A stretch of 64,000 nucleotides of DNA. Source: a virus. Lineage: Duplodnaviria; Caudoviricetes. The notes below the pieces were generated by a model that had not been told where the DNA came from, did not search any database, and was given only the letters and a program-made list of their open reading frames with translations. The stretch is taken from IMG/VR virus record IMGVR_UViG_2744054452_000001, positions 16,516 to 80,515 of that record; one strand, 5' to 3'. A program made the translations under genes and the position numbers. Below are positions 339 to 43,899 of this stretch, in pieces. Each line of letters starts with the position of its first letter. The first letter of the stretch is position 1.

Positions 339-1448
339 TTAGTTGCGCATGCGTGCTGCTTGAAGCGTCAGAAGAATCATTGATTTTTTGCTGACTGGTG
401 TGGCGCGAAAGATGGCGTCGAGCACCATGCTTGGTGGCGTGATGACGTTGCCCGGGCCTTGGGCCGGGTCGTAGTCGGCCGGCAGCAGCGCAATGGAGAC
501 TTCCAGCCCTATTCCGATCAGCAGCTTTGACGCCTCGATCGCCTTGAGCAGTGCCTTGCCTTCGCCGTCCCACATAAAGGTCACATGCTTGAGGCCGCGC
601 CTGCGCATCTGGTCGAACTTTGCAACCTGGCCAGCCTCACCTGCGGAAAGGTGCATGCCGAATGTGGCCAGGGCGATCATGTAGTTCAGCCCTGTCGCCC
701 CGAGCAATGCTTGCCGAATAGCGATAGCGTCGAATGCCCCCTCCCCCACCACCGCGTGGGTATGGATGCCCTCAATGAACGTGTTCGCGTTGTAGAGGTG
801 CGATCCCGCGACCGCAAAGCCTGCAGGGAAGAGGTACTTGGGCTCACGAGTGCCGGATATGTCGCGGCCCTGGTAGCTCACTAGGGTGCCCGCCATGTCC
901 CTGATGGGAATGAGCACGCGCTGGTCGAAGGACACATACTTCTCGCCGCCGTCACTGGTCTTGTACGTGTACCAGCCGCCATGACAGTACGACAGCTCGA
1001 AGTGAACCAGGCTGTCCAGCGTCACGCCGCGGGCCTGCAGGTAGGCCAGGTTCTGCCCCTCGATTGGCAAAGGGATGCACTTGCTGGGCATGGACAGGTG
1101 GTCGGCAGGCTTGTATATCTCCCGCACAGGCTTAGCGGGTGCCCAGCCGGCGTCGGCCGCCAGGTCGATCAGGTAGTTGTCCAGGGCGTCACCATGGAGG
1201 CCGGAGATCAGGCGCACCAGCTTGAACTTGTTGAACTTTTCGCCGCAGGCTCCATGAAAACAGTTGCCGAGGCCCGTGCCTGCATTGACGTACACCTTGC
1301 GGCCGCCCTCACCACACGCGGGGCATGTCTCCACGTTCAGCTGCATGCCGTTGGTGCCGTAGCTCTGTGTGTAGTCGATGCCTTCGCGGTCGAAATACTG
1401 CTCAATGTCGATCTTCTCAAGGCAGCGGGATAGGTCTTTTGAATCCAT
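339..1448 (-). CDS. DNA primase (Zn-finger + TOPRIM)
   Basis: N-terminal CPAC...CFHGAC zinc ribbon; IPIRD...SYQGR...PKY; TOPRIM VGEGAFDA and DGE...D motifs; near a DnaB-like helicase. Confidence 0.9.
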   Translation of the reverse strand: MDSKDLSRCLEKIDIEQYFDREGIDYTQSYGTNGMQLNVETCPACGEGGRKVYVNAGTGLGNCFHGACGEKFNKFKLVRLISGLHGDALDNYLIDLAADAGWAPAKPVREIYKPADHLSMPSKCIPLPIEGQNLAYLQARGVTLDSLVHFELSYCHGGWYTYKTSDGGEKYVSFDQRVLIPIRDMAGTLVSYQGRDISGTREPKYLFPAGFAVAGSHLYNANTFIEGIHTHAVVGEGAFDAIAIRQALLGATGLNYMIALATFGMHLSAGEAGQVAKFDQMRRRGLKHVTFMWDGEGKALLKAIEASKLLIGIGLEVSIALLPADYDPAQGPGNVITPPSMVLDAIFRATPVSKKSMILLTLQAARMRN

Positions 1449-1759
1449 TACTGCACCTCGGGATATGCAGGCTCGGTTCCAGTGAATGAGTTGACCTCGC
1501 GCTTCAAGCGCAGGACTTCTTCCTCTAACTCCTTGATGCGCTCGCCGTTGTAGGTCGTGTCCAGCACCAGTTCATCATTGAGATAGACATGGGCACCAAT
1601 CACATCGCCCATTTCCACCTCATGCGCGCACTGGTGACACAGGCACTGGCGTCCAGCCTGATCGCACTCTGCGAGCTCTGCTGCTTCCTGGGGACTATTG
1701 GCCTTGTATGCGCCGCTGTTGCTGGCGTCATAGATGACGGTTACGTCGTACTTGTTCAT
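1448..1759 (-). CDS. hypothetical protein (CLCHQC motif, C-terminal coiled coil)
   Basis: Its stop overlaps the primase start; same orientation. Confidence 0.7.
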   Translation of the reverse strand: MNKYDVTVIYDASNSGAYKANSPQEAAELAECDQAGRQCLCHQCAHEVEMGDVIGAHVYLNDELVLDTTYNGERIKELEEEVLRLKREVNSFTGTEPAYPEVQ

Positions 1760-1867: not shown

Positions 1868-3304
1868 TCAGGCTTCACCGATAACTTCAACGAGGAACTT
1901 TGCCCGTTCAATGTCCTGCTTGATGCTCAGCGTGACGCCGGTGCGCTGGTTGCGCGAGGCGGCAAAGTGCAAGCGTGCGTTGTTGGCAGCTCGCTCTTCT
2001 TCTGTCACGTTGATGGAGATCACCACGTCAGCAATGCGGATCTTGTTGAAGTCTTCGGCAACGTCTGTAGCGCCGGCAACGGCCTTCTTTGCACCCTCAC
2101 GATTGGTCTGGGTGGCGGTCAGCAGCGCAAAGCCCTCGGACATGGCCATACCGCGCAGATCCACATAGATCGTGCGGCTGTTTTCCTGCACGTTGTCGGT
2201 GCGGTACTCGGGCGCCATCAGGTCGGCATAGTCAACGACAACGAGGTCGAAGATGATGCCTTGCTGCTTGTAGCGCTCGATCAGGCGGCGCAGATCGCTA
2301 ACCTTCATCGAGCCTGTCGGGAACTCGTGTAGGGTCAGGCTAGACAGCTTCGCCAGGCGCTCCTTCACGCGAATCGAGACCTGCTCGGACTTCGCGTCCA
2401 ACTCATACATCGGTGTGTCTGAGAGGTTCGCGTCCATGCGGTCAGCGATGATGCCGTTTGCAACCTCAAGGGTGATGTAGAGCACCCGGAAGCCAGCATC
2501 GGCGGCATTGATCGCAAAGTTAATCATGGCCATGGACTTGCCAGACTTGGCAGCGCCCATGAGCAGCGACATTTCTTTGCGCCCCCAGCCCTTGTGATAC
2601 AGGTAGGCGTCGAGCTCTGGATAGCCCGTAGTGATGCCGTTGGGCGCGATGGCACCGCTTGCACGCAAGGCGCGCTCTTTGGTGCGTGCCTCCAGCATGT
2701 CGGCGTAGCTATAGCCCTCCGCACCGTGCGCTACGCCCACCTCAAGGGCGGCACGCATGATCTTTGCGATGCGTTCAAAGTCGCCCTTGTCAACGAGCTC
2801 GGCAGCTTCCAGCACCGCATTCGTGACGGCCTGCTTTTGGGCAAACATGCCCACCTTCTCGGCAACATAGTCTCGATCGGACAGGTCAACCGAGGGCAAG
2901 CGGGTTCGCACGAACTCGATGACCTGGCGGGCAACATCGGGAATGAGCGCCTTCTCAAGCAGCGCGTCCTTGATCGCTGAATTCAGCGTGACCAGGCTGG
3001 GCGCTTCCTTGTACTTGTTGAAGTGACGCTGGGCGATCTTGACCAGGCCGGCATGCGCGGGCTTTTCAAAATACTCAGGGCGCACCAGCCCATCCGTCAG
3101 CTGGCAGAACTTGGTGTCCCGCGTGAGCATCGCCGCGATCTTCTCTTGGAAGTCGAGGTCGAATTCATAGTGTGCCTCTGCGGGCGATGATGGGGCTGGC
3201 GCTGGTGCAGTTGCGGAGATAGCCGCGACCGCCACCGGTGTCATTCCAGGCAGAGTTGCTGGGTCTGCCACCACCACGCAGGCAGATCCATCGTAGCCAT
3301 CCAT
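1868..3304 (-). CDS. dnaB: replicative DnaB-like (SF4) helicase
   Basis: Walker A GAAKSGKS, YITLE, Walker B VVVDYADL, TATQTNR, and KIRIADVVI motifs. Confidence 0.9.
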   Translation of the reverse strand: MDGYDGSACVVVADPATLPGMTPVAVAAISATAPAPAPSSPAEAHYEFDLDFQEKIAAMLTRDTKFCQLTDGLVRPEYFEKPAHAGLVKIAQRHFNKYKEAPSLVTLNSAIKDALLEKALIPDVARQVIEFVRTRLPSVDLSDRDYVAEKVGMFAQKQAVTNAVLEAAELVDKGDFERIAKIMRAALEVGVAHGAEGYSYADMLEARTKERALRASGAIAPNGITTGYPELDAYLYHKGWGRKEMSLLMGAAKSGKSMAMINFAINAADAGFRVLYITLEVANGIIADRMDANLSDTPMYELDAKSEQVSIRVKERLAKLSSLTLHEFPTGSMKVSDLRRLIERYKQQGIIFDLVVVDYADLMAPEYRTDNVQENSRTIYVDLRGMAMSEGFALLTATQTNREGAKKAVAGATDVAEDFNKIRIADVVISINVTEEERAANNARLHFAASRNQRTGVTLSIKQDIERAKFLVEVIGEA

Positions 3305-3732
3305 TACTTGACCTCGGACTTGTTGAACTCGGGCAGGTCGATGGTGTCGATGGCGTGCTTGTAGATGATGGAATGCACGACCGTGTTGTTGCCAACTGAG
3401 CGCTCCATCGTCACGGTGAAGCGATCGCGGCGAACGATGATGCCGGTGATCTGCGAGCCGTTCAGACGGGTAATGGTGACGGGCTGGGCGTGATTTTGCA
3501 CATGAGACAGTGCCGCGTCATGACCCTCGGGCCGAGCACGCTGCACACCTGCGCCGCCGTTGCGGGCCTGGCCCTGCTTGCCGCCGCGGGCCGCCAGTGT
3601 CATCGTGGAGCGATCGGGACGCTCGACGCGCGGAGCTGCGATGTGGCGATGGGCCAGCACGCCGGGCTCAGCCGAGGCTTGGCGGTTTGCGTCAGAGGGG
3701 AATGCTGTGTTGCCGTGGATAGGGGAGTTCAT
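3304..3732 (-). CDS. hfq: Hfq-like Sm-fold RNA-binding protein with disordered N-terminal extension
   Basis: GHDAALSHV...PVTITRLNGSQITGIIVRRDRFTV...IIYKHAIDTI matches the Hfq Sm1 motif and the YKHAI Sm2 signature. Confidence 0.8.
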   Translation of the reverse strand: MNSPIHGNTAFPSDANRQASAEPGVLAHRHIAAPRVERPDRSTMTLAARGGKQGQARNGGAGVQRARPEGHDAALSHVQNHAQPVTITRLNGSQITGIIVRRDRFTVTMERSVGNNTVVHSIIYKHAIDTIDLPEFNKSEVK

Positions 3733-3830: not shown

Positions 3831-4514
3831 TTACTTAAATTGCTTGTAGTGAAGCAATGCAGCCTCTGCTTCTGCCGGGAAGAACCTGGTTGCCAGGGCT
3901 TCATCAAGCACGCCTTCTTTGATGAGTCGGGAGACCAGTCGATGACGGGGTGCGGCGCGCTTAGAGAGCTGATCCACGACGAACTCGATATGCGCAACTT
4001 GAACCGGGTGCTCTTCCCACTGCAGGGCAAGAAAGAAGGGTTCGCGGCTGTAGGTCAGCTCACGCGCTACCCGCTCCTTCCAAGCGTTGTAGAGGTCAAC
4101 CACGCTGTCGTAGCCATACATTTGGTTGGGGCGCGGGAAGGTGCGCCATCCATTGTTGATCGCTCGTCGCATCAGGAACTGCAGCGCCCACGGGTACGGG
4201 CAGCCGATTTTGTCGAGTACCTGCCGCGCTCTCCACACAGAGTTCGCCTCCCGGCTGCGAAGTGCGTCTGCCGGAGCTATCCCAACCACCGAGTCGGCCG
4301 TGCCGGTGTCCTTGCATGTTGCATAGAACTTCTTCGCCTGCTCGTTGTAGAAGTGCGCCCAGAGATAGGTGGCCTCAGTTGGGTGCAGAAGCCGGTAGTC
4401 AAACCATTTTCGCTGCAGCGCGTCAGGCTCCTTCTCTCTGAACTTCTCATCAATGATGAGCATGGACATTTCGTAGTGATCCCGGCTGAGTCCTGAGCCG
4501 AAGTAGGGTGTCAT
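3831..4514 (-). CDS. hypothetical phage replication-region protein
   Basis: 227-aa aromatic-rich ORF heading the replication block; its TAA lies inside an 18-bp palindrome. Confidence 0.75.
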   Translation of the reverse strand: MTPYFGSGLSRDHYEMSMLIIDEKFREKEPDALQRKWFDYRLLHPTEATYLWAHFYNEQAKKFYATCKDTGTADSVVGIAPADALRSREANSVWRARQVLDKIGCPYPWALQFLMRRAINNGWRTFPRPNQMYGYDSVVDLYNAWKERVARELTYSREPFFLALQWEEHPVQVAHIEFVVDQLSKRAAPRHRLVSRLIKEGVLDEALATRFFPAEAEAALLHYKQFK

Positions 4515-4690: not shown

Positions 4691-5554
4691 CTATCTGCCT
4701 GTTTTAATCCATGCAGGGAGGTTCACCGTCAGTAGTTTAGACAGCCCGGTAGGACGGGAACTGGACTCGTCCTGGCGGGAATACACACCGAGCATGCTTT
4801 TGACAAACCCGGAGCGAACACAGTCTGCGATGGAGAACTCCACGACCGCGACTTCATCGAGCTTACCGGTGCGGCGGATTGCATCACCCATGCCAGAGAG
4901 ACCCTGAATGTCAGATTGATCCAGGTCGCCGCAGATCATCACCTTGCAATTCTGGCCAACTCGGGTGAGCAGCATCTTCATTTGCTCCGGCGTGGTGTTC
5001 TGCGCCTCGTCAACGATGATCCAGGCATCATTGAAGGTGCGCCCGCGCATGAATGCCAGAGGAAGGGGTTCTACCTGGCCACTCTTGAGCGCATATTCCA
5101 GTTGGCCAGCGCCCATGCTGTCCTTCATGATCTGTCGGACTGGCTCGATGTAAGGGGCGAATTTTTCATCCAGCTCGCCAGGCAGAAAGCCCAGCTTCTC
5201 GCCGGCCGCCTCGATTGCGGGTCGTGTAAGGACGATCTTGCTGATTCGCTTAGAAGTGAATGCCTCGCATGCCATTGTCACGGCAACATAGGTCTTGCCG
5301 GTGCCCGCTGGGCCTGTTGCGAAGATAAGCTGGCTCGTATTGATCGCGGAGATCAGGAGCTTCTGATTGGCGCTCTGCGCCTGCAGCTTTTTGGCTGGCC
5401 TGCTCGGCTGGTATTCCAGCTGAGCAAGTGCATTTGTAAGGTGTGAGTTCACCGGATCGCCCCGGCCAATGCGCCCACTTTTGTTATTTTTGTTCTTATG
5501 GTTGCTTGCGCTTGCCATCGTCATCTCCAGTGAACTCAGGAACGAACTATACAT
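4691..5554 (-). CDS. phoH: PhoH-family ATPase
   Basis: GPAGTGKT, TRPAIEA, LGFLPG, AFMRGRTF, DEAQN, LTRVG and GDLDQSD motifs. True start may be an ATG near 5518-5524. Confidence 0.92.
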   Translation of the reverse strand: MYSSFLSSLEMTMASASNHKNKNNKSGRIGRGDPVNSHLTNALAQLEYQPSRPAKKLQAQSANQKLLISAINTSQLIFATGPAGTGKTYVAVTMACEAFTSKRISKIVLTRPAIEAAGEKLGFLPGELDEKFAPYIEPVRQIMKDSMGAGQLEYALKSGQVEPLPLAFMRGRTFNDAWIIVDEAQNTTPEQMKMLLTRVGQNCKVMICGDLDQSDIQGLSGMGDAIRRTGKLDEVAVVEFSIADCVRSGFVKSMLGVYSRQDESSSRPTGLSKLLTVNLPAWIKTGR

Positions 5555-9644: not shown

Positions 9645-12600
9645 TTACTTTGTACGAATGGCCGCTTCGAGGCTTGCCAGGCGCAGTTCAAGCGCTTGGT
9701 TTTTCTCGTCCAGCTCCTTGATCGCCTCGACCAAATGAGGCACCAAGCGCTCGTACTTGAGGGTCAGGTAGAACTTGCCGGTTTTGGATTCGCCCTTCAC
9801 CGCTGTACGGTCGAATGGAGCCTGCTCAACCACCTCGGGAATGATCGCCTGCACGTCCTGAGCCAGCAGGCCGACCTCGGCCTTTTCCGGGTCGTAGCCA
9901 TACTTCGCGCCCAGCTTGTTGGCGTGGTAGTGGTAGCCGGTCAGCTGTGCAACGGCTGCCAGCGCACCCTTGATCGGCTTGAGCTTGGTCTTGAGGCGCT
10001 TGTCGGAGTAGTAGGCGGTGACGTTGCCCGTGAACGCGCCCTCATTGCCGACATACAGCGCCTTGCCGTTGTAGACCCGCACCCAGGTGGAGTCCTGCAT
10101 CATCATGCCGCCGCCGTATGACTCGCTGTACCAGCCGCAGTTGCCGGTCGTGCGCAGCCAGTCGCTCACGTAGATGCGGGTCGCGTTAACGCTATTGGCA
10201 ACATTCCAGTTGCCGCTGTTGTCCATTGCGCAGCCGCCGACATTTGGCTTGTAAAAGCCGATTGCGCCGGAGTTGCCATATGCATAGCCGCCACTGCTCG
10301 TGAAGAACAACTGCCCTTCACCAGAAGATGTGATCTTTACAGAGCCCGTGACCTCCAGACCGTTGCTGTCGGCACGCAGAAGCTGTGTGGTTACGTTGGT
10401 GCCCGCATTGATGTTGGCAGCACTTGCCCACGACAAATGCCAGCTTTCGCCAAGTTGACCGATGGCAAAGGAGTTGCCACCAGCTGTCTTTTGCGATGCC
10501 CATGCGTGCCAGGAGGATGCAGTGGAGGGGCTGAACACAATAGCGGCCTGGCCGCGGCCGGTGCCGTCAATCCACGATGCGGCGGCTGTTGGCAGCGTCA
10601 TAGCGCCCGACACATTGGCAGAGCCGTCGAAGCTCACGCCATTGATGGTGCGCTCGATAGCCAGTTTGGTCGCCGTGCTGGCGTTGCCTGTCAGCGGGCC
10701 GTTGAAACCAGCCGCGAACACCTGGCCAGCAAAGCCAGCGCCGCCCTTGACGATCAGGGAGCCAGTTGTTGTGCTGGTTGCGGCAGTCGTGGCATTGACG
10801 CGCAAAATACCGCTCAGCAAGTTCTCAGACTCGCCGGTCGAATAGATGCCATAGCGCACCCCGGAGAATGTGCCCGAGATACCGACCTTGATGCCATATG
10901 CGGTCGTTGCCGTGCCCGCCTGATTGCGCACATATGCCTCGTAGCCAATCATGTTGGTGGCGACAGCGGTGGAGTTATTCAGGTGGGGGTAGCTGTAGTT
11001 GCCAATGACAGTCGTAGCGGTCTGGTTGGCAGCACTCAACAGCGAGTAACCGCGCACGCCCTCAATGCGGCCGGTGACTTGCTCGGTGACAGTGCCTCCT
11101 GTTGGCTGTGAGACGACCGCATAACCCCGCACACCGTACAGCTCCTGGGTATGTGCACCGTCAATCGCATCCTGCGCCTCAAAGTGACCCGCAACGGTCG
11201 TCATGTTGAACCCCAGCTCCTTGCCGTTGGCATAGGTGAGGTAAGAGCGAATGCGGGCATATTCCCCGTAAGCGGTACGGGACGCCGTCAGTGCCCCGTC
11301 CTTCACATCGACAAGAATGCGGGAGCCGAAGGGGCTGGAGTTTGCCACGATGGTGTTCTGCAGCACGTCAAGCTGGACACTCGATGCGGAAGACGTGCCA
11401 ATACCAACGCGATCACCAAAGACGCTGACGCCCTTGACGCCCACACCGCCCAGCACACGCAGGGCGCCATCAGTTGCGTCAGTCTTGCTCGCAATAGAGG
11501 TGCTTCGGATGGTTGCTGCAGCGGTGGTCTCAAACATCGAGGCGACAACCTGGAGCACGCCGCCGGCCGAGCCCGTCGTGCCGCCGTAAGCCATGATGCG
11601 GGAGTCGTAATCGACAACAGACGTTCCACTGTGGAAGTCGATATAGGGCGTGGTCGCCACGGTGCCGTTGATGTCGCCAATCTCGATAGCTGCGCTCTTG
11701 CCGGTTGCCACGATGGAGAGTGAGTCGCTGATCGTTGGGCTGGTACTCAGCACCACGTTACCCGAGCCGGTTGACGTGGTGGTGCCGGTGCCGCCGCGGG
11801 CGACGGGAAGGGTGCCGGCGCTGATGTTCCCTGCGTTCAGCGAGGTCAGGGCCGCGCCGTTGCCGCTGAATGTGGATGCCGCGAGGTTGCCGTCCCAAAT
11901 ACCATTGCCGTTTTCATCCAGCAGCACCGCGTTCTTGCTAACCGAGTTCGTGTTGGCATCGACGTTGGCCTTGGTCATGTAGTAGGCGCGCAGCGTGCCC
12001 TGGTAGGTCGCAAGACCAATGGAGCCACTGGTCGTATTACCAGCCAGGAACGGCATGAACGCACCAGCTGTCGAGTTCGACGGCTGCAGGATGGAGCCAC
12101 CTGCGCGCAGGCTTGCAACGTAGCTCGTGCCAGTTGCAGAGGTGAAGCCATTGATCGTAGAGACCTGGCCGGGGAAGTTCGTGTTGCCGTTCTCGTCCAA
12201 GAGCGCGGCCTGGCGCTTGATTGCGGCAAACGATCCCGTGTACTGGCGCACATAAATCTGCTCAGATCCGTCATCGGCAGTGGCCAGCTCGGCAAAGCCG
12301 TTGTTCGTGGACGTGGCACCAACACCCAGGCGGAACGCATCGCTGCCGCCCATCTTCGCGTAGATGATCGGGGCAACCACGTTCGACACATTGGCGGCCG
12401 TCATCGAAATGTAGCTATTGGGGTCGTCAGGAACTACAAACTTCTTGCCTGGTTTCAGCTCCAGGTCGATTGAGTCGGTAAGGACGCGCTCCCATTCAGA
12501 CCAGTCGGAAACAGGCGTTCCCGTTGCGTCGTTGCCGCGAACAAAGAGCGCCTTGCCGTTGTTCAGGATCTGGGCAACGTCATTTCGTGCGGAGCTCCCC

Positions 12601-15600
12601 AGCACCACGCCGCCGAAGTCGGCAGCACCAGTAAAGGGCAGCGAGTCGGCATATGTGTTGGCACTGCTGTCAGTGCTTGAGCGGGAACCATGAAAGAAGC
12701 CAGCGGACAGCACAGTGTTGAGCGACTTGGCTGTTACGTCTTCGATGGATGCCGGCACCACAATGTCGCTTGTGCCGTCGAAGTCCGTGCCGTTGATCGT
12801 GCGAGTGTTCAGCAGCTTGGTGGCGCTGGCCACGTTGCCGCTAACGAACGCAACTTCTTGAGGCGCAGTCCATGAGTATGTGGCTACGTCGCCATGGGCA
12901 CGCACAAAAAGGCGCGTCTTGCCGGATTGCCACTCGTGGTAAATCTCAGTCGTGGCGATGCCCTGATGGCCAACCAGGCGAATGCGATTGCCGTAGGTGA
13001 TCGGGTATCCAGATGCGGTGCCGTTGTAGATGCCGTCAACGTACACGCCTGACGTGAGGCCGTAGGTCGCCGTGCCGGTGGGCATCGCTCCCGAGGCATT
13101 GCCGAGGTATGGGGCGTTGACAGTAATGTTGCCGGTGCCGTCGAACTCCACACCGTTGATGGTGCGTGCCGTCTGCAGCTTGTTTGCCGACTCAACGAGG
13201 GACGTGAGCGACCATGCCTTCCAGGTCTTGCCGCTATCGACCGACCAGCGCATTGCGCTGGCGTAAGGAGCGGTATCGCTCATGGCCTCTTGGACAATGC
13301 GCGGGCCGTTATGGCTGACACGGATCATGCCCCAGCTCGTGAGGTTCGTGCCGCTGATGCTTGGGCCGCCGGGCTGCACGCTCAGACCCTGCTGGCTGAA
13401 ATAGTCACCAGGGGTCACGAGGTTGTCGAGGTTCGCTGTCTTGCTCAGCAGCAAGCCGTCTGTGACGAAGTTGTCGAGCGCGCTCGGCTTGTAGGCGGTG
13501 GCGACCTTACCCATTTCGATCTGGACGTTGTCAACGTCCATGAACACAGGCGTGACTCCGTCGATACCGTTGATGCGGCCGAAATAGACGTAGACGCCAG
13601 TGGTGCCGGCGGGCGCAGGGCCGGCGGCCAGAATACAGCGCTGGAAGTCGGTCTCTGAGCCAATATCAAACGCCCGGCTTGGCGTGCTGATTGTTCCATT
13701 GGAGGCATTGCGCCACTGCAGGTACATGCGGAACGTCGCGCCTACAGTGCCACGGATATGCGAGCTGGCAACAACGAAGTCTCCTGGCTGCGCAGGGATG
13801 GTCGCCGCCGTCACAACGTCCATGTAGCGAGTCGCAGAGAGCTTTTCCCCGTACATGCGGAATGCCACGGAGCTTTGGGCCAGGGGTGACTCGACATAGG
13901 AGCGCGTCACCTTCTCGCCAGAAACCGCGCTGGTGCCCGCAATGCTGGAGCCAAAACCCTTCGGTGACACGGTCACTGTGCCTACCAGTGGCTCGCCCTC
14001 TTCTGTCCTTGCCTCAAAGCTGGAGTTGACCTGCAGGTTCGCACCGCCGACCGAAAGGGAGCTGTTGAGCACGTTGGAAAGGAGATCCGGCGACAGCTGC
14101 GCCTCCGGAACGAAACCGCCGGAGTCGAGCGTTGCAACGCCGCTCTTTGCCCCCGCCTTGTTGGCATCGAGCTTGGCGTTCAGGGCGGTCTGGGTCGCTG
14201 TGCTGATCGGCTTGTTGGCGTCAGACGTGTTGTTCACGTTGCCCAGGCCAAGGTCTGCGAGCGTCCATGCGATGTTTGCAGAGCCGTCGAATGAACGTGC
14301 CGTCGATCCGATGGTCACTGTGCGCGCTGTGGTCAGCTTCGCCGCGCTCCCGGTTGTGTTTTGGTTGCCGGTGGTGTTGACGCCAGGAAGGTCAATATTC
14401 GCGGTGCCGTCGAAGTTCACACCGCCAATAGAGCGCACCGTTGCCAGCTTGGCAGCAGCGGTTGCCGTGCCGCGTGATGTTGTGACGTTCTCGGCCCAAT
14501 CGGTGAAAACCCAGCCAGATGCGCCGCGAGCGCCAGTGCGCGACCAGGACGTGTTGCCGGAATAGACCGTCTGAATTACAGCAGAGCCAGCGTCATACAG
14601 GCGCCGAATGATGTGAATGACGCCCGTGTAAGAAGCGCTCGCGCCCAATGGGCCGTTGGTGTACGTACCGGACAGGGTATAGAAGCCGCCTGCCGTGGCC
14701 GTCACCATGGTGTCGAAGTCGGTTCCGCCGTCTGTGGCTGCCCCGCCGTTGCCTGGCGCATTGCGTGCCTGGGCAACGCCTAGCGCAACCAGTGCGCTCA
14801 GAGGCGCCTCACCAGTCAGCATCGACGCATCCAGCGCAGTCACAGGGATGATCGCGTTGCCAGAGCCGTCGAATACGGTCGCCGTACCAGTTGCCGCGCC
14901 AGCCATCGAAATGGTGCGGGCGGTCTGCAGCTTGGTGGCGGTGCCGGCATTGCCCGACACGGCCAGGGGCGGGTCATTGGTTGTATAGACCCGCTCCCAT
15001 GCACTCCACTCATTGACGCCGTAGAACGCACGCTGGTAGGTTTTTCGTCCAGAGTCAGAGCGGTAGGTCGTCAGCTCTTGGATGTAGCCGGCGGCGCGCC
15101 ACACGCGCAGAGAAAATGCCTCTCCCGTGGGGCAATTCAGCAGTGTTGCTGCCGTCACGTTGGCGGCGCAGTAGTACGCCCCTTCGTTTTTGAAGTCGTT
15201 GAGGTCTTGATTGGACGCGATGGGCACGCCCTGCCACTGCAGAGCGATATTGCTGGTGCCATCGAAGTTCACACCGTTGATGGTTCGCGCGGTCTGCAGC
15301 TTTGTCGCTGTGGCGGCGTTACCGGTGGTGCTCTGGTTGCCGGCAGTGTTCACGCCTGGCAGGTTGATGTTCGCCGTACCGTCGAAGCTCACACCGCCGA
15401 TCGTGCGGGCAGTCTGCAGCTTGGTGGCGCTAGCCACGTTGTCGGTCTTGGTAGCGGCACCAACATCAGCAGCCGACAGCACGACCGCCCCGGTCTTGCC
15501 GTTGACGGTCGTTACAGCCGCGGAATTGTTGATGCGGTAGAAGGCCGCCAGCACCTTGGAGTAGATCAGGAAGTCGCCTGCCTCGTACAGCACGCCACTC

Positions 15601-16688
15601 ACGGTTCCACCGACCTGGACGCGCCAGATAGAGGCAAGGCCAGGGGTTGCTGGATACTTTCCCGTGCTCAGATCCACGCCGCCCATTTCAGCGAACGAGT
15701 TCTGGACGCTGCCGACGATCGAACGTGCGGTGTCCTCGCTCTCTTTGGCGGCTGCAGCAGAAGCCGCTGCAGCGGTCTCGCTGGTCTTTGAGTTGGTCTC
15801 GCTGGTCTTTGCATTCAGCGCAGACGCCGCGGCGTTCGATGCGCTGTTGCTCGCCTCCGTTGCCTTGGACGATGCGGTCGATGCACTGCCGGCGGCCGCA
15901 GTTTGGCTGGCGGCAGCGTTGGTTTCGCTGGTCTTGGCCGCAGTTTGGCTGGCGGCAGCGTTGGTTTCGCTGGTCTTGGCCGCAGTTTGGCTGGCGGCAG
16001 CCGCAGTTTGGCTGGCAGCAGCAGCAGTTTTGCTCGATGCGGCGTTGGTCTCGCTGGTCTTGGCGTTGGTCTCGCTGGTCTTAGATGCCGTCTGGCTGGT
16101 TTTTGCCTGGTCGGCGTAGTATTTGGCACCGTAACCCTGGCCAGTCACCACTTCTGAGGTGGTCTGTGTTGCCCACTTTTGTGCCTGTGCCGCACTGGAG
16201 CTGGAGCTGGTTGCGCTCGCGGCGGCATTACCGGCGCTGGCTGCAGCATTGGTCTCGCTGTTCTTGGCGTTCGTTGCGTGCGTGTTGGACTTGGCGATGT
16301 TTTCAGTCGTGACCGCCATGGCCTCGCTGGCAACGACCGCAGACTCGGCTGCTTTTTCAATCGCCAGATTCGCACTCTCAAGCGCGCTCAGAACGTCCGA
16401 CGAGACAGTTTTGTGGGCATTGATAATGTCTGCCGCAGAGTGCGCCAGCTCACGCGAATAGCCCTGGACAGGGATGATCTCGTAAGGGGCGGTGGTGCTG
16501 GGGCCGGCGTATGCCCTGGCAAGCGTGATCTCAGTTGCCGAGACCACGGTTTTGATTTCGTAGTGTTTGCCGTCCGGGCCCACGAAGGCTTCACCGCGCT
16601 CAATGTTGTCAACAAAGTTGGCGAGCGAGCAAATGACCTTCGCGGAACCGTTCACGACGGTAGCGTTACCGCGCTTGTACCATTCCAT
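9645..16688 (-). CDS. long tail fibre with C-terminal intramolecular chaperone (S74-like)
   Basis: Stf-like AAASETNA repeats, eight KLxTxRTI-type repeats, knob-like modules, and C-terminal SDKRLK...GLLAQDV...YERLVP.LVEAIKEL. Confidence 0.9.
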   Translation of the reverse strand: MEWYKRGNATVVNGSAKVICSLANFVDNIERGEAFVGPDGKHYEIKTVVSATEITLARAYAGPSTTAPYEIIPVQGYSRELAHSAADIINAHKTVSSDVLSALESANLAIEKAAESAVVASEAMAVTTENIAKSNTHATNAKNSETNAAASAGNAAASATSSSSSAAQAQKWATQTTSEVVTGQGYGAKYYADQAKTSQTASKTSETNAKTSETNAASSKTAAAASQTAAAASQTAAKTSETNAAASQTAAKTSETNAAASQTAAAGSASTASSKATEASNSASNAAASALNAKTSETNSKTSETAAAASAAAAKESEDTARSIVGSVQNSFAEMGGVDLSTGKYPATPGLASIWRVQVGGTVSGVLYEAGDFLIYSKVLAAFYRINNSAAVTTVNGKTGAVVLSAADVGAATKTDNVASATKLQTARTIGGVSFDGTANINLPGVNTAGNQSTTGNAATATKLQTARTINGVNFDGTSNIALQWQGVPIASNQDLNDFKNEGAYYCAANVTAATLLNCPTGEAFSLRVWRAAGYIQELTTYRSDSGRKTYQRAFYGVNEWSAWERVYTTNDPPLAVSGNAGTATKLQTARTISMAGAATGTATVFDGSGNAIIPVTALDASMLTGEAPLSALVALGVAQARNAPGNGGAATDGGTDFDTMVTATAGGFYTLSGTYTNGPLGASASYTGVIHIIRRLYDAGSAVIQTVYSGNTSWSRTGARGASGWVFTDWAENVTTSRGTATAAAKLATVRSIGGVNFDGTANIDLPGVNTTGNQNTTGSAAKLTTARTVTIGSTARSFDGSANIAWTLADLGLGNVNNTSDANKPISTATQTALNAKLDANKAGAKSGVATLDSGGFVPEAQLSPDLLSNVLNSSLSVGGANLQVNSSFEARTEEGEPLVGTVTVSPKGFGSSIAGTSAVSGEKVTRSYVESPLAQSSVAFRMYGEKLSATRYMDVVTAATIPAQPGDFVVASSHIRGTVGATFRMYLQWRNASNGTISTPSRAFDIGSETDFQRCILAAGPAPAGTTGVYVYFGRINGIDGVTPVFMDVDNVQIEMGKVATAYKPSALDNFVTDGLLLSKTANLDNLVTPGDYFSQQGLSVQPGGPSISGTNLTSWGMIRVSHNGPRIVQEAMSDTAPYASAMRWSVDSGKTWKAWSLTSLVESANKLQTARTINGVEFDGTGNITVNAPYLGNASGAMPTGTATYGLTSGVYVDGIYNGTASGYPITYGNRIRLVGHQGIATTEIYHEWQSGKTRLFVRAHGDVATYSWTAPQEVAFVSGNVASATKLLNTRTINGTDFDGTSDIVVPASIEDVTAKSLNTVLSAGFFHGSRSSTDSSANTYADSLPFTGAADFGGVVLGSSARNDVAQILNNGKALFVRGNDATGTPVSDWSEWERVLTDSIDLELKPGKKFVVPDDPNSYISMTAANVSNVVAPIIYAKMGGSDAFRLGVGATSTNNGFAELATADDGSEQIYVRQYTGSFAAIKRQAALLDENGNTNFPGQVSTINGFTSATGTSYVASLRAGGSILQPSNSTAGAFMPFLAGNTTSGSIGLATYQGTLRAYYMTKANVDANTNSVSKNAVLLDENGNGIWDGNLAASTFSGNGAALTSLNAGNISAGTLPVARGGTGTTTSTGSGNVVLSTSPTISDSLSIVATGKSAAIEIGDINGTVATTPYIDFHSGTSVVDYDSRIMAYGGTTGSAGGVLQVVASMFETTAAATIRSTSIASKTDATDGALRVLGGVGVKGVSVFGDRVGIGTSSASSVQLDVLQNTIVANSSPFGSRILVDVKDGALTASRTAYGEYARIRSYLTYANGKELGFNMTTVAGHFEAQDAIDGAHTQELYGVRGYAVVSQPTGGTVTEQVTGRIEGVRGYSLLSAANQTATTVIGNYSYPHLNNSTAVATNMIGYEAYVRNQAGTATTAYGIKVGISGTFSGVRYGIYSTGESENLLSGILRVNATTAATSTTTGSLIVKGGAGFAGQVFAAGFNGPLTGNASTATKLAIERTINGVSFDGSANVSGAMTLPTAAASWIDGTGRGQAAIVFSPSTASSWHAWASQKTAGGNSFAIGQLGESWHLSWASAANINAGTNVTTQLLRADSNGLEVTGSVKITSSGEGQLFFTSSGGYAYGNSGAIGFYKPNVGGCAMDNSGNWNVANSVNATRIYVSDWLRTTGNCGWYSESYGGGMMMQDSTWVRVYNGKALYVGNEGAFTGNVTAYYSDKRLKTKLKPIKGALAAVAQLTGYHYHANKLGAKYGYDPEKAEVGLLAQDVQAIIPEVVEQAPFDRTAVKGESKTGKFYLTLKYERLVPHLVEAIKELDEKNQALELRLASLEAAIRTK
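15760..16110. repeat. coding tandem repeats (21/42-bp units) in the fibre Ala/Ser/Thr region
   Basis: GCCGCAGTTTGGCTGGCGGCAGC and TTGGT[CT]TCGCTGGTCTT units encode AAASQTAAKTSETN. Confidence 0.8.
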
Positions 16689-16746: not shown

Positions 16747-17361
16747 TCAATCGCTCGGCCACTCTATCGCCTTGACCGCGTCGATGGTCGTGCAGCAGTT
16801 GATTTGGGCACGCAGGCTGCGGCCGATCGCATGGACAGAGTTTGTGTAGTCACCCAGCTGCGCGCAGATTTCCTGCAGCTCTTCGGCCCCCAGCGAAATT
16901 TCACCGTTGTCGGAGGTCGTCCACTCCACATGGAACCCGGGCACGTTCTGGGCGATCAGGGCATAGGACACGATCTTGCTGCGGCTCGAATCGTCGTTGT
17001 CGATCGGGATGCCGCGCCACTGAAAACCAGTTGCTTCAACGACCGCGCGTCGCTCCTTGATCTCTATCCAGCGAGCAGCCTTCACCTGCGCCAGCGAGCG
17101 CCCCTCGACCCATTCATGGGACACGAAGTCATAGATGGCACCCTCATACGGCGGCATGCCCAGCGAGACAACGACCTTGGCGTCGAAGTCCCAATAGCAT
17201 GTGCCGGAGTTGGCGGCTTGATAGCCATCGTCATCCAGCTCGATGGCGAGCAGTTCATCGCCAAACAGCGATTGGGCGTATTCGGTATCGGGTTCGCCCA
17301 GGGTGACAAGGCGAGCAATCTCGCCTGTCTTGCCCTTGACCCCTGCAAAGTAGCAGGTCAC
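16747..17361 (-). CDS. DUF4376-like tail protein
   Basis: EIK.RR......GF.W.G..ID.D..SR.KI...WTT.DN pattern. Confidence 0.7.
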   Translation of the reverse strand: MTCYFAGVKGKTGEIARLVTLGEPDTEYAQSLFGDELLAIELDDDGYQAANSGTCYWDFDAKVVVSLGMPPYEGAIYDFVSHEWVEGRSLAQVKAARWIEIKERRAVVEATGFQWRGIPIDNDDSSRSKIVSYALIAQNVPGFHVEWTTSDNGEISLGAEELQEICAQLGDYTNSVHAIGRSLRAQINCCTTIDAVKAIEWPSD

Positions 17362-20300
17362 TTTTTGATCTCCTGTAGCATCATTGTTCGATTGGTCACG
17401 CTGAAACCGAGCAGGTTGCCGCCTTCGCCATAGACGCGAATTGCGTATTGCCAGCGGCCAGCGTTTGCGTTGACGATGGTGTCAACGTAAGTGAGCACGA
17501 TTGAGCCCATGCCGTATGCATAGAGCGCGGTGCTGAATGCGCGGCTGTAGCCGATGACCAGGCCAGAGCGCACAACGGTCTCCCCTCCCCAGGGGTCGAT
17601 TCGGATAATGTCGGCCTTGTAGCTCAGGTTGGTGCCCTTGTAGGCCGCAACGTCACCGACCGGACGGAGCAGGAAATTGGCAGTCATCACCAGCTTGAAG
17701 GTGCCGCCGGACGTTCCAGATCCCGAGCAGGTAATGCCGCCGGTCATGATGCGGGCGTCGCCCAGCCAGCCCGTGTCGCCCGAGGCGATAGTTCCACTGA
17801 ACTGGTGATAGATGGCCTGTGTGACCGCCTGGTCTTTGATTTTCAGAGTCTCGACCTGCAGGTTGCCAATCTTCGCGGAGGTAATCACACCGTTCTTGAT
17901 GAACGCCTCGCTGATATAGACGCCGGGGTTGACGGTCTGGCCATTGATCGTGGTCGCGGTCGTCAGCACCTGGAACGGCGTCGATGTAGTGGCCAGGGCC
18001 GAGGTCTCTGGCGTGGCGATGATGAACTTATCGGACGCCACGATGAACGACGAGGTCGGTGCCGCGTTATTGGCCGTCGAGATCAACCCGAACCCGGAGA
18101 CATGCCCCTTGTTGTTGACCTTGACGGAATACTTGGCCTCTGTCCCGCTGATGCTGCTGGCGAGCGTGCTGAACTTTTGCTCCATGGTCACGCTGCCGCC
18201 GCCGGCTGTGTTCAGGCGGGCTGTCAGCTGGGTGATGCTGGTTGCGTTGGCACTGTCGGCGGTGGCACGGGTGCTTTCTTCTTTCGCCAGGCGGGCCTCA
18301 ACGCTGTTCACGGGCTTGCCCGTGGCGTCAAAGGTATTCAGGCGAGAGACCATGTCGGTGATCGACTTTGTGAGCACGCTGTCGGCGTCTGCCCGGGTCT
18401 TCTGTTCTGCTGCCAGCACGGCCTCGTAGGAGCCCGCAGGCTTGCCAGTCGCGCTGTACTTATCCAGGCGGGAGGTCACTGAGTTGATAAGGCTGGTGGT
18501 GGCAGAGTCACCATCTGCGCGCGCGGTCGCCTCGTTCTGAATCAGGTTGGTGGTGCTGGCCAGGTTAGAGGACACCGTGGTGGTCAGATTCGTGATGCGA
18601 GTGCTCAGCGCCGAATCTTCGGTCGCGCGGGTGCGTTCCTCAGTCTGGATCAGTGCCTTGACTGCCGAGTCATTGGCCGTCACGGTCGAGGTCAGATTCG
18701 TGATGCGGGTGCCCAGCGCCGTGTCAGCGGTGATGCGCGACTTTTCCTCTGTCTGAATCAGGGTCGTGAGCTTGGAGTCACCGGCCATGAATTCAGTCTG
18801 GGAGGAATTGATCAGGATCGTCAGTGCCTCGTCGCGCGAGACTCGTGCGGTCGATTCGGTCTGAATCAGTGCGCGAAGAGCTGCCGCCTCGGTGCTCAGC
18901 GAAGCCTGCATTGCCGTGATCGACTTGGTCAGCACGCCATCTGCATCAGCCCGGGCCTTTTGCTCGGCAACGATCAGACCGGACAGGCGCAGGTCTTCGG
19001 CGTCCATGGATACCTGCATGCCGTCGATCCGTGTGGTCATGGCGCTGTCGGCAGTGGTACGGGCAGTTGCCTCGGCCTGGATCAGCGCCCTGGCGGCGGT
19101 GTCGTTGGTCTTGACCGTGGCGGTCAGCTCTGTGACCGTCTTGGCGATAGCCTCGTCTGCCGTGGTGCGCGCCAGGGCTTCGGAGCCGACCGCCGCTGTG
19201 TTGGCGCTGTCGGCCAGTTTCAGCTCGGCATACACGGTGTCGATGCGTTTCCCCAACGCGGTATCGGCGTTGGTGCGAGCAGTGGCCTCAGAACCGACCG
19301 AGGCGGCTGTGGAACTGTCGGCCAGCTTCAGCTCAGCATACACCGTGTCGATACGCTTGCCCAGCGCTGTGTCGGCGGTGGTACGGGCTTCTGTTTCGGT
19401 TTTCACCGCACCCACGCTTGCGGTGTCGCCCGCGAGCATTTCGGCATAGACGGTATCGACACGCTTGCCGAGCGCTTCATCGGCGGCTGCCCGGGCAGTC
19501 TGCTCGGTGGTCACAAGGCCGGTGATGCGCTCGGTCTCAGTGGTCAGTGTTGCCGCCAGCTGCTCGATGCGTGTGCTCAGGGCTCCGTCTGCGGTGGTGC
19601 GTGCGCTCTCTTCAAGGGAGATAAGTGCTTTCAGGCTCTTGTCGAGCGCACCGGTCTGCTCGGCCACCAGGGCATTGACACGGGCAGCCTCGGCGGAGTC
19701 GGCGCTTACGCGAGCGGACTCTTCTGCCTTGATGGATGCCTTAATGTCAACGATCTCCTTGTCACGAGCCACCTGCTGTGCCGCGATCAGCTCGGAGACC
19801 TTGCCGATGGCAGTGTCTGTGTCAGTGGCCAGCTTCACGACCTCTTCACGCAACGAGGCAATGGCATTGGTGGTTGAGTTCTTCACCTCTTCGGTGAGCA
19901 CCACGGAGCGCAGCAGCAAGTCGCCGTCACGCTGCAGCTTCCAGCCCACAGAGCGCAGCTCTTCGCGCAGGCTCACCAGATCGACATTCAGGGCTTCGGA
20001 CAGGGAGGTCAGATCCTCCAGCGCCTCGGGCGTCAGGATGGCAGTCAAGTCACCGATCTTTTCGATCTCGGTGATGACCTCGCTGAAAAAGCCGGTGCGC
20101 TTGAACGATTCCTCAAGGCCATTGAGGATGTCGGTCACGTCTGTGTTGGCCTTGGCCTTCAAGACGCGGTCAGTCGGGTAAAAGTCCGAGTGAATGCCGC
20201 GCTTGTCGATGGCGCGCAGCTTGTACTGGCGCTCGGCACCAGGCGCCAGGTCTTGATGTGTCCATGCCGTCGCCACCGATGGCACGGTCTGCATCAGCTT

Positions 20301-40340: not shown

Positions 40341-40697
40341 TCAGTCCTCCAGTACGAACTCACCCGGCTCGACGGTGATTTCCGGCACTTCGTCTTCCAG
40401 TTCTGGGATGGGCACCGAGGCGGAAAGAGGACGAGGATCGTAGAAAGCCAGACCACCCGGAGCGAGCCCGAATGTCTGACGCATGCGGCCCCTTCGCTGG
40501 GCAACCCCCAATTTCACGATCAGCCCCTTGGTGGCCATGGCGCGGATCGTGAACTGCAGGGATGCCTTGCTGGCGGACTCGGTGAGATCAAGGATCTCGT
40601 CCAGGTCGGGATCGCCGCGCTCACGGATGAAGTCCATGATTTTTCGCTGCATGGCGGAAGGCGCCCTCTTCTTGACGGGCTTGCGTGCGACTGTCAT
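40341..40697 (-). CDS. winged-helix DNA-binding protein
   Basis: S.MQ.KI..FI...LDEI.....SKASLQ..I..M..KGLI.K pattern with a basic wing. Confidence 0.7.
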   Translation of the reverse strand: MTVARKPVKKRAPSAMQRKIMDFIRERGDPDLDEILDLTESASKASLQFTIRAMATKGLIVKLGVAQRRGRMRQTFGLAPGGLAFYDPRPLSASVPIPELEDEVPEITVEPGEFVLED

Positions 40698-41773
40698 TCG
40701 GCAAGCACCTCACCGCGCTGGATGCGCTCGAGTTCCTTCAACTGCTCTTTCAGCGCTTCGCGCTCGCTGGGCTTCAAGGGCGGCTCGTTGACGGGATACT
40801 GGCCAGCCCATGTCGGCACCCAGCCTTCCCAATTGCCACTAAGGGCGGCATCAGGCGCCTGCTCATCGAATGCCAGCAGAGGCATGACGTTCGGCAGCGG
40901 CTGGCTGGTGGGCGGGGCACTGAAAATCCAGTACACCGTAGCCGAATAGACCAGCTGCTGAATCTGGCGCACCACGTACTCGATGGCCAGCTCGTTCACG
41001 CGGGTCATGCCCAAGTCGCGCTTGTCGCCCGACTTCTCGACGGATGACCACTTGTAGTAGAACTCGCGCAGCTTGCGATCCATGACCGCGCGCTCGGCAT
41101 CTGGAAGCCCACGCAGCTCGGCCAGAACCGCGACTATGTCGTAGCCTGGCGCCTTGAAGTAGGCGGCAAAGAAGACCAGGCCATCATTGAGCGCCGATGC
41201 CGTCTTGGGGCGGGTGAACTTCATGCCCGTCTTCACTGAGAAGGGGTTGAAGCGGCCCATTGAACTGCGGCTCTCAATGAATCGGATTTCGTAGCGGGCG
41301 CAGTACATGCGATAGGCCAGGTTTTTGAACCGGTAGGCGATGCCGGCACCGCGGTACATGGTGTCGAGCACGGTGCGGTTGTTCCAGGCTAGGTTGCGGT
41401 TGATCCAGGCCAGGCGCGTCTGGTTGACCAGGCGGTTATCACGCCCGTTCACGTTTGGGCGCAGGCGCGGGAATACGTCGTTGCGGCCGCCGTCCAATGG
41501 GCGAGGGTTCGCAATGACCGTAACGCCGACGAGCTGGGGAGCTTCGCCTGGAACGCGCAGCATGCAGCGCAGAAAACGAGAACCCGCAGCCAGCGTGTGT
41601 CCCTTGTAATGCAGCTCACTGAGAGCATGCCAGTCGTCAACAGTGCCCCATTCCACATAAAGGTGCTTCATCAGGCTCAGCGTGTGGGACTTGCCGGGAC
41701 GCCGAGGCTGATAAAGGATCTCCACTTCCTGCTGCTCCAGCATGTCGGCAATTTTTTCTTGATAGCTTTTCAT
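40694..41773 (-). CDS. GNAT-fold acyltransferase (similar to the acetyltransferase half of ABC-ATPase/GNAT fusions)
   Basis: L..LHY; RTVLDTMYRGAGIA acyl-CoA-binding loop; SMGRFNPF..K.G motif. Confidence 0.7.
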   Translation of the reverse strand: MKSYQEKIADMLEQQEVEILYQPRRPGKSHTLSLMKHLYVEWGTVDDWHALSELHYKGHTLAAGSRFLRCMLRVPGEAPQLVGVTVIANPRPLDGGRNDVFPRLRPNVNGRDNRLVNQTRLAWINRNLAWNNRTVLDTMYRGAGIAYRFKNLAYRMYCARYEIRFIESRSSMGRFNPFSVKTGMKFTRPKTASALNDGLVFFAAYFKAPGYDIVAVLAELRGLPDAERAVMDRKLREFYYKWSSVEKSGDKRDLGMTRVNELAIEYVVRQIQQLVYSATVYWIFSAPPTSQPLPNVMPLLAFDEQAPDAALSGNWEGWVPTWAGQYPVNEPPLKPSEREALKEQLKELERIQRGEVLAE

Positions 41774-41785
41774 GCTGGCGCCTGA

Positions 41786-42115
41786 TCAGATCGCGTTAGC
41801 GGCCACCAACTTGGACAGGATCTGGGCCTCCGTGGCATCACCGGTGTGCACCAGCTTGGCGGTGGACTCGCCACTGCCATTTGCACGCAGGGAAACGACA
41901 GATGGCGAGCCACGCAGGCCCAGGGCACGGGCATCGGCCAGGTTCTCCTGAATGTCCACCGTCACCATGGGCACAAGGTTCTCTTCGCAGACCTTTTCCA
42001 GAATGGGCTTGAGGCGCTTGCAGGGCGCGCAATTGGCGGCAGTGAAGCACACCACCCCGTCAAAGCCGCTCAAAACCAGTTCGCGGTATGTCATATTTTT
42101 ATTGTTCAGGTTCAT
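41786..42115 (-). CDS. thioredoxin-like protein
   Basis: FTA..CAPCK.L.P active site and a cis-Pro (GSP) region. Confidence 0.85.
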   Translation of the reverse strand: MNLNNKNMTYRELVLSGFDGVVCFTAANCAPCKRLKPILEKVCEENLVPMVTVDIQENLADARALGLRGSPSVVSLRANGSGESTAKLVHTGDATEAQILSKLVAANAI

Positions 42116-42172
42116 ATCTAACTAAGTCAGTTGTGACTTACTTTTTATTTTAATTCAGCGCGACCGTGCTGG

Positions 42173-42376: not shown

Positions 42377-42399
42377 AGATATTTCTCTTCGGGAAGGGG

Positions 42400-43733: not shown

Positions 43734-43756
43734 TTTTCTTCTTCTTCTGTGGGTGA

Positions 43757-43897: not shown

Positions 43898-43899
43898 GG

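Follow-up and report, generated by a model that had tools for sequence, protein, structure and literature searches.

Introduction

Hfq is a central hub of RNA regulation in bacteria, and phages exploit the host Hfq with small RNAs (sRNAs) of their own. The described systems closest to the locus studied here are bacterial Hfq itself, represented by the proteins of E. coli (b4172) and S. aureus (1kq1), the Nickievirus phages, and two replicons of Cupriavidus metallidurans. Here, we report an Hfq-like gene in a 64,000-nucleotide stretch of DNA from an uncultivated phage, referred to as the window, which covers bases 16516-80515 of the linear 80,515-bp IMG/VR virus record IMGVR_UViG_2744054452_000001 (CheckV completeness 71%). 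The gene lies directly upstream of the gene for a DnaB-like replicative helicase. It represents a separate Hfq subfamily, so far unstudied, that is linked to the helicase and differs in the arrangement of its surfaces.

In the Sm ring as described by Mura et al (PMC3710371), the lumen is lined by the loops L2, L3 and L5, of which L3 lies closest to the proximal face; U-rich single-stranded RNA (ssRNA) is bound at a site near the pore, and the L4, or distal, face binds A-rich RNA. The rim residue R16 was reported to be nearly invariant among 384 cellular Hfq sequences and to be needed for annealing, and the rim-arginine mutants of E. coli Hfq bound RNA without annealing it (Panja et al, PMC3753642). 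Phage-encoded Sm-fold proteins of unknown function have also been described (PMC3710371, PMC11373665; rows 6 and 14 of our matches in BFVD, a set of predicted viral structures). They resemble the window protein in being small and phage-encoded, and differ from it in that they have no detectable sequence relation to it; the cyanophage Sm protein, as presented in PMC3710371, also lacks the N-terminal helix and is a pentamer.

The Nickievirus phages and the Cupriavidus replicons carry a relative of the gene in the same genomic slot. The protein gp117 of Pseudomonas phage nickie is an 89-aa “hypothetical protein” and was the second structural match in BFVD, whereas the copy in Nican01 is labelled “hfq, RNA-binding protein Hfq” in GenBank; “Hfq” has 0 occurrences in the main text of the Nican01 paper (PMC11256456). 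No functional study of a phage-encoded Hfq was found among the papers listed in a literature search. The subfamily is undescribed in the searched literature, though members have been auto-annotated as Hfq in Nican01 and in the Cupriavidus plasmids.

Results

The window protein is an Hfq-family Sm protein with a basic N-terminal tail

An earlier note on this DNA, made by eye from the sequence, had proposed a phage-encoded Hfq homologue translationally coupled to the replicative helicase and had suggested a profile search as a check. In that search, the Pfam Hfq profile (PF17209) matched residues 72-131 of the protein with an E value of 4.1e-11 and a score of 42.8 bits, above the gathering score of 27. 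When the protein was compared by phmmer with the sequences of the Protein Data Bank (PDB), only Hfq chains were returned, 35 of them at E ≤ 1, and S. aureus 1kq1 ranked first (E 3.1e-4). The AlphaFold2 (AF2) model, built from an alignment of 61 sequences, had a predicted local distance difference test score (pLDDT) of 92-98, as means of 10-residue blocks, across residues 71-140, and contained a helix at 71-80 followed by strands at 84-89, 94-102, 106-113, 117-124 and 128-132. All the top matches listed by Foldseek against the PDB were Hfq, with target-normalised template modelling (TM) scores up to 0.89, and the first three were an engineered form of E. coli Hfq that carries a long L4 loop. 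Thus, the Sm fold on which the earlier proposal depended is predicted, as an N-terminal helix and a five-stranded sheet. The YKHAI motif was also recovered as described; the Sm2 motif Y124 K125 H126 A127 I128 aligns to Y55-I59 of E. coli Hfq and the L3 aspartate D103 to D40.

The protein falls below both NCBIfam equivalog cut-offs (40.9 versus 61.7 bits for TIGR02383 and 32.2 versus 95 bits for NF001602), which E. coli Hfq, used as a control, passes with 99.6 and 148.5 bits, respectively. The idea of a phage Hfq homologue therefore stands for an Hfq-family Sm protein, as judged by Pfam and by fold, and does not extend to an equivalent of the cellular chaperone. There was no PHROGs family for the protein at E ≤ 0.01, the best being phrog_19781 (unknown function) at E 0.011. 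Similarly, the known helicase loaders (lambda P, DnaC/DnaI, T4 gp59 and similar) gave no match to it in Pfam or PHROGs and its structural matches were Hfq only, and the profile of the single-stranded DNA-binding protein (SSB; PF00436) matched neither this protein nor anything in the genome G000.

Residues 1-68, upstream of the core, contain 10 K+R and 4 D+E with an isoelectric point (pI) of 11.9. Residues 1-60 were modelled without secondary structure at a pLDDT of about 53-59, and the tail leaves the core beside the proximal-face helix in the AF2 model. The basic, disordered N-terminal tail of ~70 aa read from the sequence earlier was thus borne out at a length of 68 aa.

The proximal pocket is kept and the distal and rim positions are changed

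The sequence of E. coli K-12 Hfq (b4172) was fetched and aligned with the window protein, and the identity over the core was ~30%. The pocket residues D9, F42, K56 and H57 are kept as D72, F105, K125 and H126. The distal positions Y25 and I30, which we take to be residues of the A-site of E. coli Hfq, are T88 and S93, so that the mapping made earlier by eye was exact. Further changes are Q8 to H71, R16/R17/R19 to Q79/N80/A82, F39 to R102 and Q41 to R104, and the equivalents of L45 and Y55 are separated by 15 residues as against 9 in E. coli, giving a longer L4 loop. Among the proximal-pocket positions Q8, F42, K56 and H57, only Q8 is therefore replaced, whereas neither the rim arginine patch nor the distal A-rich site of chaperone Hfq is present. 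The window protein thus shares with bacterial Hfq the Sm fold, YKHAI, the pocket and the L3 aspartate, and differs from it by these substitutions, by its N-terminal tail in place of a C-terminal one, and by being encoded within a phage replication operon.

The same pattern was seen when the positions were counted in 61 aligned relatives, of which 60 are matched by Pfam Hfq at E ≤ 1e-3. The G/H/D triplet (70-72) is invariant, with H at the Q8 position and D at the D9 position in 61/61 each; the F42 position is aromatic in all 61 (F28, Y28, W5), K56 is kept in 61/61 and H57 in 59/61. The positions around the pocket are basic, with R at F39 in 60/61, K or R at Q41 in 61/61 and a basic residue at S38 in 45/61. 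On the rim, 57/61 relatives have Q at the R16 position and 0/61 a basic residue, while R17 is basic in 0/61 and R19 in 34/61. On the distal side, a single relative (1/61) has an aromatic residue at the Y25 position, 29/61 have an acidic one at the I30 position, and the L4 (distal-face) segment varies from 10 to 26 residues. The N-tails are 16-85 aa long and all net positive (+1 to +8), and the cores are near neutral. Hence, the view that the proximal face is kept and the distal face lost holds across the whole alignment and is incomplete, as the rim R16 is gone too; the protein is more than an Hfq minus its mRNA face. Judged by these residues, the family keeps a predicted proximal pocket that has been made more basic and has no conserved distal site and no rim R16. 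Its disordered region has shifted to the N-terminus and is basic.

The gene is invariably followed by the replicative helicase gene

A scan of IMG/VR with patterns from the family alignment gave 26 loci, each on a contig of its own; several of these 26 contigs are 104-116 kb long. A DnaB homologue lies directly downstream in 26/26 loci (tblastn, 45-61% identical), and a primase is present in 25/26, the remaining contig ending before the primase position. PhoH and the phrog_2500 protein are found upstream in most of the 26. When the helicase start is taken as the first ATG in its frame, it lies -8 to +9 nt from the Hfq-like stop codon in every one of these loci, and the same holds for phage nickie. 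Several loci contain additional genes between helicase and primase, and none has a gene between the Hfq-like gene and the helicase. The identity to the respective protein encoded in the window is 23-34% for the Hfq-like proteins versus 43-60% for the helicases, so the former evolve faster, and the pairwise identities of both proteins co-vary (Mantel r 0.73, reached by 0/2000 permutations). In the window, the two genes share base 3304, which belongs both to the stop TAA (3306-3304) of the Hfq-like gene and to the helicase ATG (3304-3302), and a GAGG located 7 nt before this ATG falls within the end of the Hfq-like open reading frame (ORF). The stop/start overlap reported by the earlier note is therefore present, as TAATG. 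The features of the locus, which on the minus strand run in the order PhoH-like, phrog_2500, Hfq-like, DnaB-like, phrog_9984 and primase, are collected in Table 1.

Table 1. Positions in the window of the Hfq-like gene, its parts and the genes of its module
Feature	Position	Strand	Description	Basis
Hfq-like ORF	3304..3732	-	142 aa plus TAA stop, ATG start	ORF list, Pfam Hfq, purifying selection
Basic disordered N-terminal tail	3529..3732	-	residues 1-68	composition, AF2 pLDDT, variants, net-positive relatives
Sm/Hfq core	3328..3528	-	residues 69-135; helix 71-80, five strands, longer L4 loop	AF2, Foldseek, alignment
Core motifs of the Hfq-like ORF			EGHD (69-72), RRDRFT (101-106), YKHAI (124-128)	
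Coupling junction	3302..3315	-	GAGG (3315-3312), 7 nt, then TAATG	read directly from sequence
DnaB-like replicative helicase	1868..3304	-	478 aa	Pfam DnaB_C E 1.9e-17; phrog_19 E 4.2e-81
Upstream gene, phrog_2500	3831..4514	-	227 aa, all-helical	phrog_2500 E 1.3e-39; AF2 pLDDT 91.9
PhoH-like ATPase	4691..5554	-	first module gene	Pfam PhoH E 3.4e-71; phrog_170 E 1.1e-83
Small phrog_9984 ORF	1448..1759		between helicase and primase	
DnaG-type primase	339..1448	-	last module gene	Pfam DNAG_N E 2.9e-10; phrog_47 E 5.1e-41

The nearest cultured relatives of the helicase are found in the Rhizobium phages RHEph10 and RHph_X66 (46-47%), Pseudomonas phage nickie (45%), Stenotrophomonas phages (45%) and the SSU5-like phage-plasmids (Salmonella phage SSU5; 42%). 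The SSB profile PF00436 was absent from 5/5 complete relatives that bear the Hfq-like gene and from 5/5 of a second set (RHEph10, SSU5, RHph_X66, BUCTxx99 and the Hfq-bearing Nican01). This absence is uninformative, as SSB is lacking both with and without the Hfq-like gene, and the idea that the Hfq-like protein replaces an SSB was dropped for want of any anticorrelation.

In the helicase itself, residues 1-45 (3170..3304, minus strand), directly after the coupling junction, form an Ala/Pro-rich and variable N-terminal extension. All the helicase tblastn matches begin at query residue 45-48, the residues before that being unaligned in every relative, and a deletion of 3 nt at 3268, within this extension, keeps the frame in one strain contig. 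The phrog_2500 protein is common to every related module (SSU5_038, nickie gp118, RHEph10 gp031 and the Cupriavidus replicon). When its AF2 model was compared with known structures, Foldseek gave nothing at E ≤ 1e-3, the best VIA match had a Z of 5.9, and the Atlas gave no usable match.

The frame is under purifying selection and its start codon is probably the ATG at 3732

Words sampled from window 1800-4600 were recovered at 57-66% in four public sequencing runs, which belong to two studies (freshwater and insect metagenomes); none of the public runs listed as containing window sequence was an RNA run. Contigs of these four runs were aligned to 3200-3850, and the 39 variant sites listed within the ORF were analysed, 6 further variants lying beyond this list. 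The changes are synonymous at 32/39 sites versus 25% expected for random changes (binomial p 2e-13), and of the 39, the third codon position accounts for 34, the first for 5 and the second for 0. Since the variants are mostly synonymous, the Hfq-like frame is under purifying selection, and a non-functional or mis-called ORF was rejected on this excess. The tail has 11 synonymous and 4 non-synonymous variants and is therefore coding.

The position of the start codon was considered separately, as no strong Shine-Dalgarno sequence precedes the ATG at 3732 and the gene caller had used an internal GTG, starting at residue 25, for the 98%-identical protein P0001. Residues 5-17 are kept in relatives that are 46-47% identical, short motifs of the tail are common to P0002/P0003, and the variants at residues 7-27 comprise 5 synonymous and 1 non-synonymous. 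The conservation of residues 5-17 together with the mostly synonymous variants at residues 7-27 favours the ATG at 3732 over the internal GTG.

The protein belongs to a large phage-linked subfamily

A word-indexed search returned only 3 relatives, and a profile search over 1.84 billion representatives returned 197 proteins at E ≤ 1e-3, so that the subfamily comprises at least 150 clusters at 50% identity. Motifs were surveyed in the 151 best proteins (150 listed by the profile search plus P0001): GH[DEQ] is present in 150, a YKHAI-like motif in 146, xRD[KR][FYW]T in 137 and all three in 132, and only one of the proteins (P0143) is a canonical cellular-type Hfq. Their median length is 108 aa, with a median of 38 aa (range 13-86) in front of GHD and of 12 aa after YKHAI. 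On this basis, we define the subfamily signature as [KE]GHD...xRD[KR][FYW]T...YKHAI[ED] with an N-terminal basic extension; in the window protein, it reads EGHD (69-72), RRDRFT (101-106) and YKHAID (124-129), preceded by the 68-aa tail.

In 185,579 species-representative genomes, the two patterns FVAKGHD[AS]Q and [IV]xYKHAIE[SGV][VI] gave 5 matches, 0 of which was confirmed; with these two patterns only, divergent members such as the Cupriavidus variant would be missed. Among GenBank phages, a set that may lack records close to the window's genome, window 1-9000 was not matched at the nucleotide level, and neither the Hfq-like protein nor its relative P0008 was matched by tblastn. With E. coli Hfq as query, 7/50,697 phage records were matched, several of them being bacterial contigs of 386-501 kb. 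The remark that a phage copy of Hfq is unusual is therefore right for canonical Hfq in isolated phages and does not apply to the present subfamily, given its size. On four other IMG/VR contigs (L004-L007, for example L005 5998-6228), the encoded Hfq is of the canonical type, 76 aa long and lacking an N-tail. Its context is unrelated and has no DnaB nearby; ordinary Hfq thus also occurs on viral-classed contigs.

Cultured phages and replicons carry the gene in the same slot

In the Nickievirus phages (nickie gp117; Nican01_00034), the orthologue occupies the slot between a phrog_2500-like gene and the DnaB-like helicase gene, shows an 8-nt overlap onto the helicase ATG, and contains NGH..FDNYTIT motifs. 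It is present in this slot in 6 Nickievirus records. These proteins differ from the window protein in being 89-105 aa long with a short tail and a degenerated Sm2 (FKS for YKH), and they score below the Pfam Hfq cut-off (23.4 bits for nickie and 19.2 bits for Nican01). The Nican01 orthologue matched the family profile with an hhalign probability of 90.6%. The Stenotrophomonas phage BUCTxx99 contains a 69-aa ORF in the same slot (L039 2281-2490), also with an 8-nt overlap with the helicase ATG, that had no Pfam match and an hhalign probability to the family of 0.7%. Either an Sm-like protein that has diverged too far to be recognised or an unrelated replacement may occupy the slot here.

Two circular replicons of Cupriavidus metallidurans (NZ_CP090528.1, NZ_CP083720.1) contain PhoH, phrog_2500-like, Hfq-like, DnaB-like and primase genes in the same order as the window. 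Their Hfq-like protein, WP_224446232.1 “RNA chaperone Hfq”, is 128 aa long with a basic N-tail and the motifs NGHD...GRDAFT...YKHAI, and is 36% identical to the window protein over residues 41-134. It differs by a 25-nt gap to the annotated helicase start and an A at the Q41 position, and its carriers differ in being resident circular replicons of a cultured bacterium, 106-107 kb in size and typed non-mobilizable in PLSDB. These “plasmids” look like resident phage-plasmids. In both, the module (L041 2799-7379 in NZ_CP090528.1) stands beside a lysis-type peptidase gene. Six Azospirillum chromid matches in PLSDB were rejected as canonical cellular Hfq that does not belong to the helicase-linked family.

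Other features of the window

The window has a GC content of ~0.59 and encodes a lambda-like tail (J-like fibre and tape measure), a portal, a large terminase and a major head protein. Two very large tail genes lie on the minus strand. One (9645..16688) codes for a composite tail-fibre protein of 2347 aa with matches to many tail-fibre PHROGs, the other (17358..22724) for a lambda J-like central fibre of 1788 aa. A ParB-like protein (43080..44000) adjoins two ATPase genes labelled ABC-transporter-like by PHROGs (phrog_886 and phrog_293; region 40694..44000, minus strand). These three genes may form a partition system, which is consistent with the SSU5-like phage-plasmid kinship. The GC content drops to 0.53 in window 48001..52000, compared with about 0.59-0.61 elsewhere, and the ORFs tested in 46-56 kb had no PHROG match. 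The window contains 0 tRNAs, and scans of it for promoters and terminators gave no excess, the counts being at or below shuffle expectation.

Discussion

We consider it the best explanation, with a probability of about 0.5, that the Hfq-like protein forms an Sm ring that binds RNA on one face and has its role in the early/replication programme of the phage. The protein would assemble into an Sm ring and bind U-rich ssRNA, such as 3' ends, in the proximal L3/L5 pocket, which keeps the equivalents of D9, F42, K56 and H57 and in which Q8 has become H, F39 has become R and Q41 has become K/R. The basic N-tail, being flexible, may provide a second arm that binds nucleic acid non-specifically. For sRNA-mRNA pairing, E. 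coli Hfq requires its distal A-rich site and its rim R16 patch; as both are lacking here, such a ring would bind or hold RNA rather than work as a matchmaker of the host type. The Hfq-like protein and the DnaB-like helicase would be made from the same message, probably by translational coupling, and a shared message with the helicase would place the action in the early/replication programme. The role could then be the handling of RNA needed at replication or the post-transcriptional control of the early operon. T4 RegA, a small RNA-binding translational repressor of unrelated fold, is encoded inside a phage replication gene cluster, and by analogy it may be taken as a lead for the latter.

Several observations weigh against this explanation. 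The co-variation of the Hfq-like and DnaB identities shows co-inheritance and not interaction, the conserved adjacency may be inherited operon structure only, and tight junctions are common in phage genomes. Furthermore, SSU5, RHEph10 and RHph_X66 have the PhoH/phrog_2500/DnaB/primase module without an Hfq-like gene, and since they run the module without it, the gene is dispensable for the helicase as such. Rfam gave 0 matches within the window, and no other candidate RNA partner turned up there. In addition, the nearest ESM Atlas clusters, of 112-154 aa, belong to the Hfq or Hfq_1 families and carry bacterial (Acidobacteriota) labels, taken from few members; because of these labels, the restriction of the subfamily to phages and phage-plasmids should be read as the current picture only.

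The strongest of the other explanations, which we regard as possible and still distinctly less likely than RNA binding, is that RNA is not the main ligand and that the ring, or the tail, would directly contact either the DnaB-like hexamer or single-stranded DNA (ssDNA), serving as a loader, brake or fork accessory. The adjacency of both genes with a tight junction is invariant in the 26/26 IMG/VR loci and nickie, short conserved motifs stand out in the otherwise variable tail, and neither a recognisable loader nor SSB was found in G000, in the five complete relatives bearing the gene or in the five further relatives. Sm-fold proteins that regulate a hexameric RecA-type ring helicase are described in PMC12360218, which reports that E. 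coli Hfq binds Rho with a Kd of about 40 nM and that Rof/YaeO, a structural homologue of Hfq, inhibits Rho; this is an analogy only, as the target there is the host RNA helicase Rho and not a replicative DNA helicase. E. coli Hfq was also reported to bind ssDNA and to affect M13 replication (PMC10392684). On the other hand, the strictest conservation falls on the uridine-pocket residues, SSU5 and RHEph10 have the same helicase without the Hfq-like gene, the lack of SSB shows no anticorrelation with the gene, and no similarity to any known loader was detected with Pfam, PHROGs or Foldseek. In its most specific form, which we hold to be equally tentative, the six-fold Sm ring would be a dedicated helicase cofactor, produced in a one-to-one ratio with the DnaB-like ring, itself six-fold. 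Just as tentatively, it might dock on that ring or on RNA/ssDNA at the origin or fork and load, position or gate the helicase, for example by holding an origin transcript or R-loop. If true, an Sm/Hfq protein would for the first time have a direct part in DNA replication, and the SSU5/Nickievirus-like phages and phage-plasmids would possess helicase accessory factors of a new class.

It is rather improbable that the protein is an ordinary RNA chaperone that pairs phage or host sRNAs with mRNAs, its basic N-tail replacing the rim arginines and another surface replacing the distal site. Its score with Pfam Hfq, the database name “RNA chaperone Hfq” given to relatives, and the exit of the tail beside the proximal-face helix would fit such a function, and phages do use Hfq-dependent sRNAs, such as VpdS of VP882 (PMC13603594). 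The NCBIfam scores, both below the cut-offs that E. coli Hfq passes, argue against it, as do the absence of a basic residue at the R16 position in any of the 61 relatives and the variable or acidic distal positions. The E. coli rim-arginine mutants that bind RNA and fail to anneal it (PMC3753642) point in the same direction. Least probable of all is a host-takeover factor that would titrate the U-tails of host sRNAs, form inactive mixed rings with host Hfq or bind host Rho against termination: the profile of a sponge, with the sRNA 3'-end face kept and the faces for productive pairing lacking, the early-region location, the Hfq-bearing Pseudomonadota infected by the cultured relatives, and the precedent of Hfq-Rho binding (PMC12360218) speak for it, but the core identity to E. 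coli Hfq, at only ~30%, makes mixed rings uncertain, the strict helicase link is left unexplained, and for such a gene one would anticipate more frequent relocation or loss than the 26/26 synteny suggests.

Taken together, the observations in the earlier note on the ORF, family, fold, tail, junction and residues were confirmed, and its interpretation was supported only in part. A large phage family brings its own Hfq-like protein, always wired to the replicative helicase, in which one canonical RNA face is kept and reinforced, two others are removed and the disordered tail is at the opposite end. It thus offers a natural “separation-of-function” Hfq for dissecting the role of each surface. The cultured carriers, namely the Nickievirus phages of Pseudomonas syringae and the Cupriavidus metallidurans replicons, make the question directly testable, and the answer may show how phages couple RNA handling to replication or interfere with host riboregulation.

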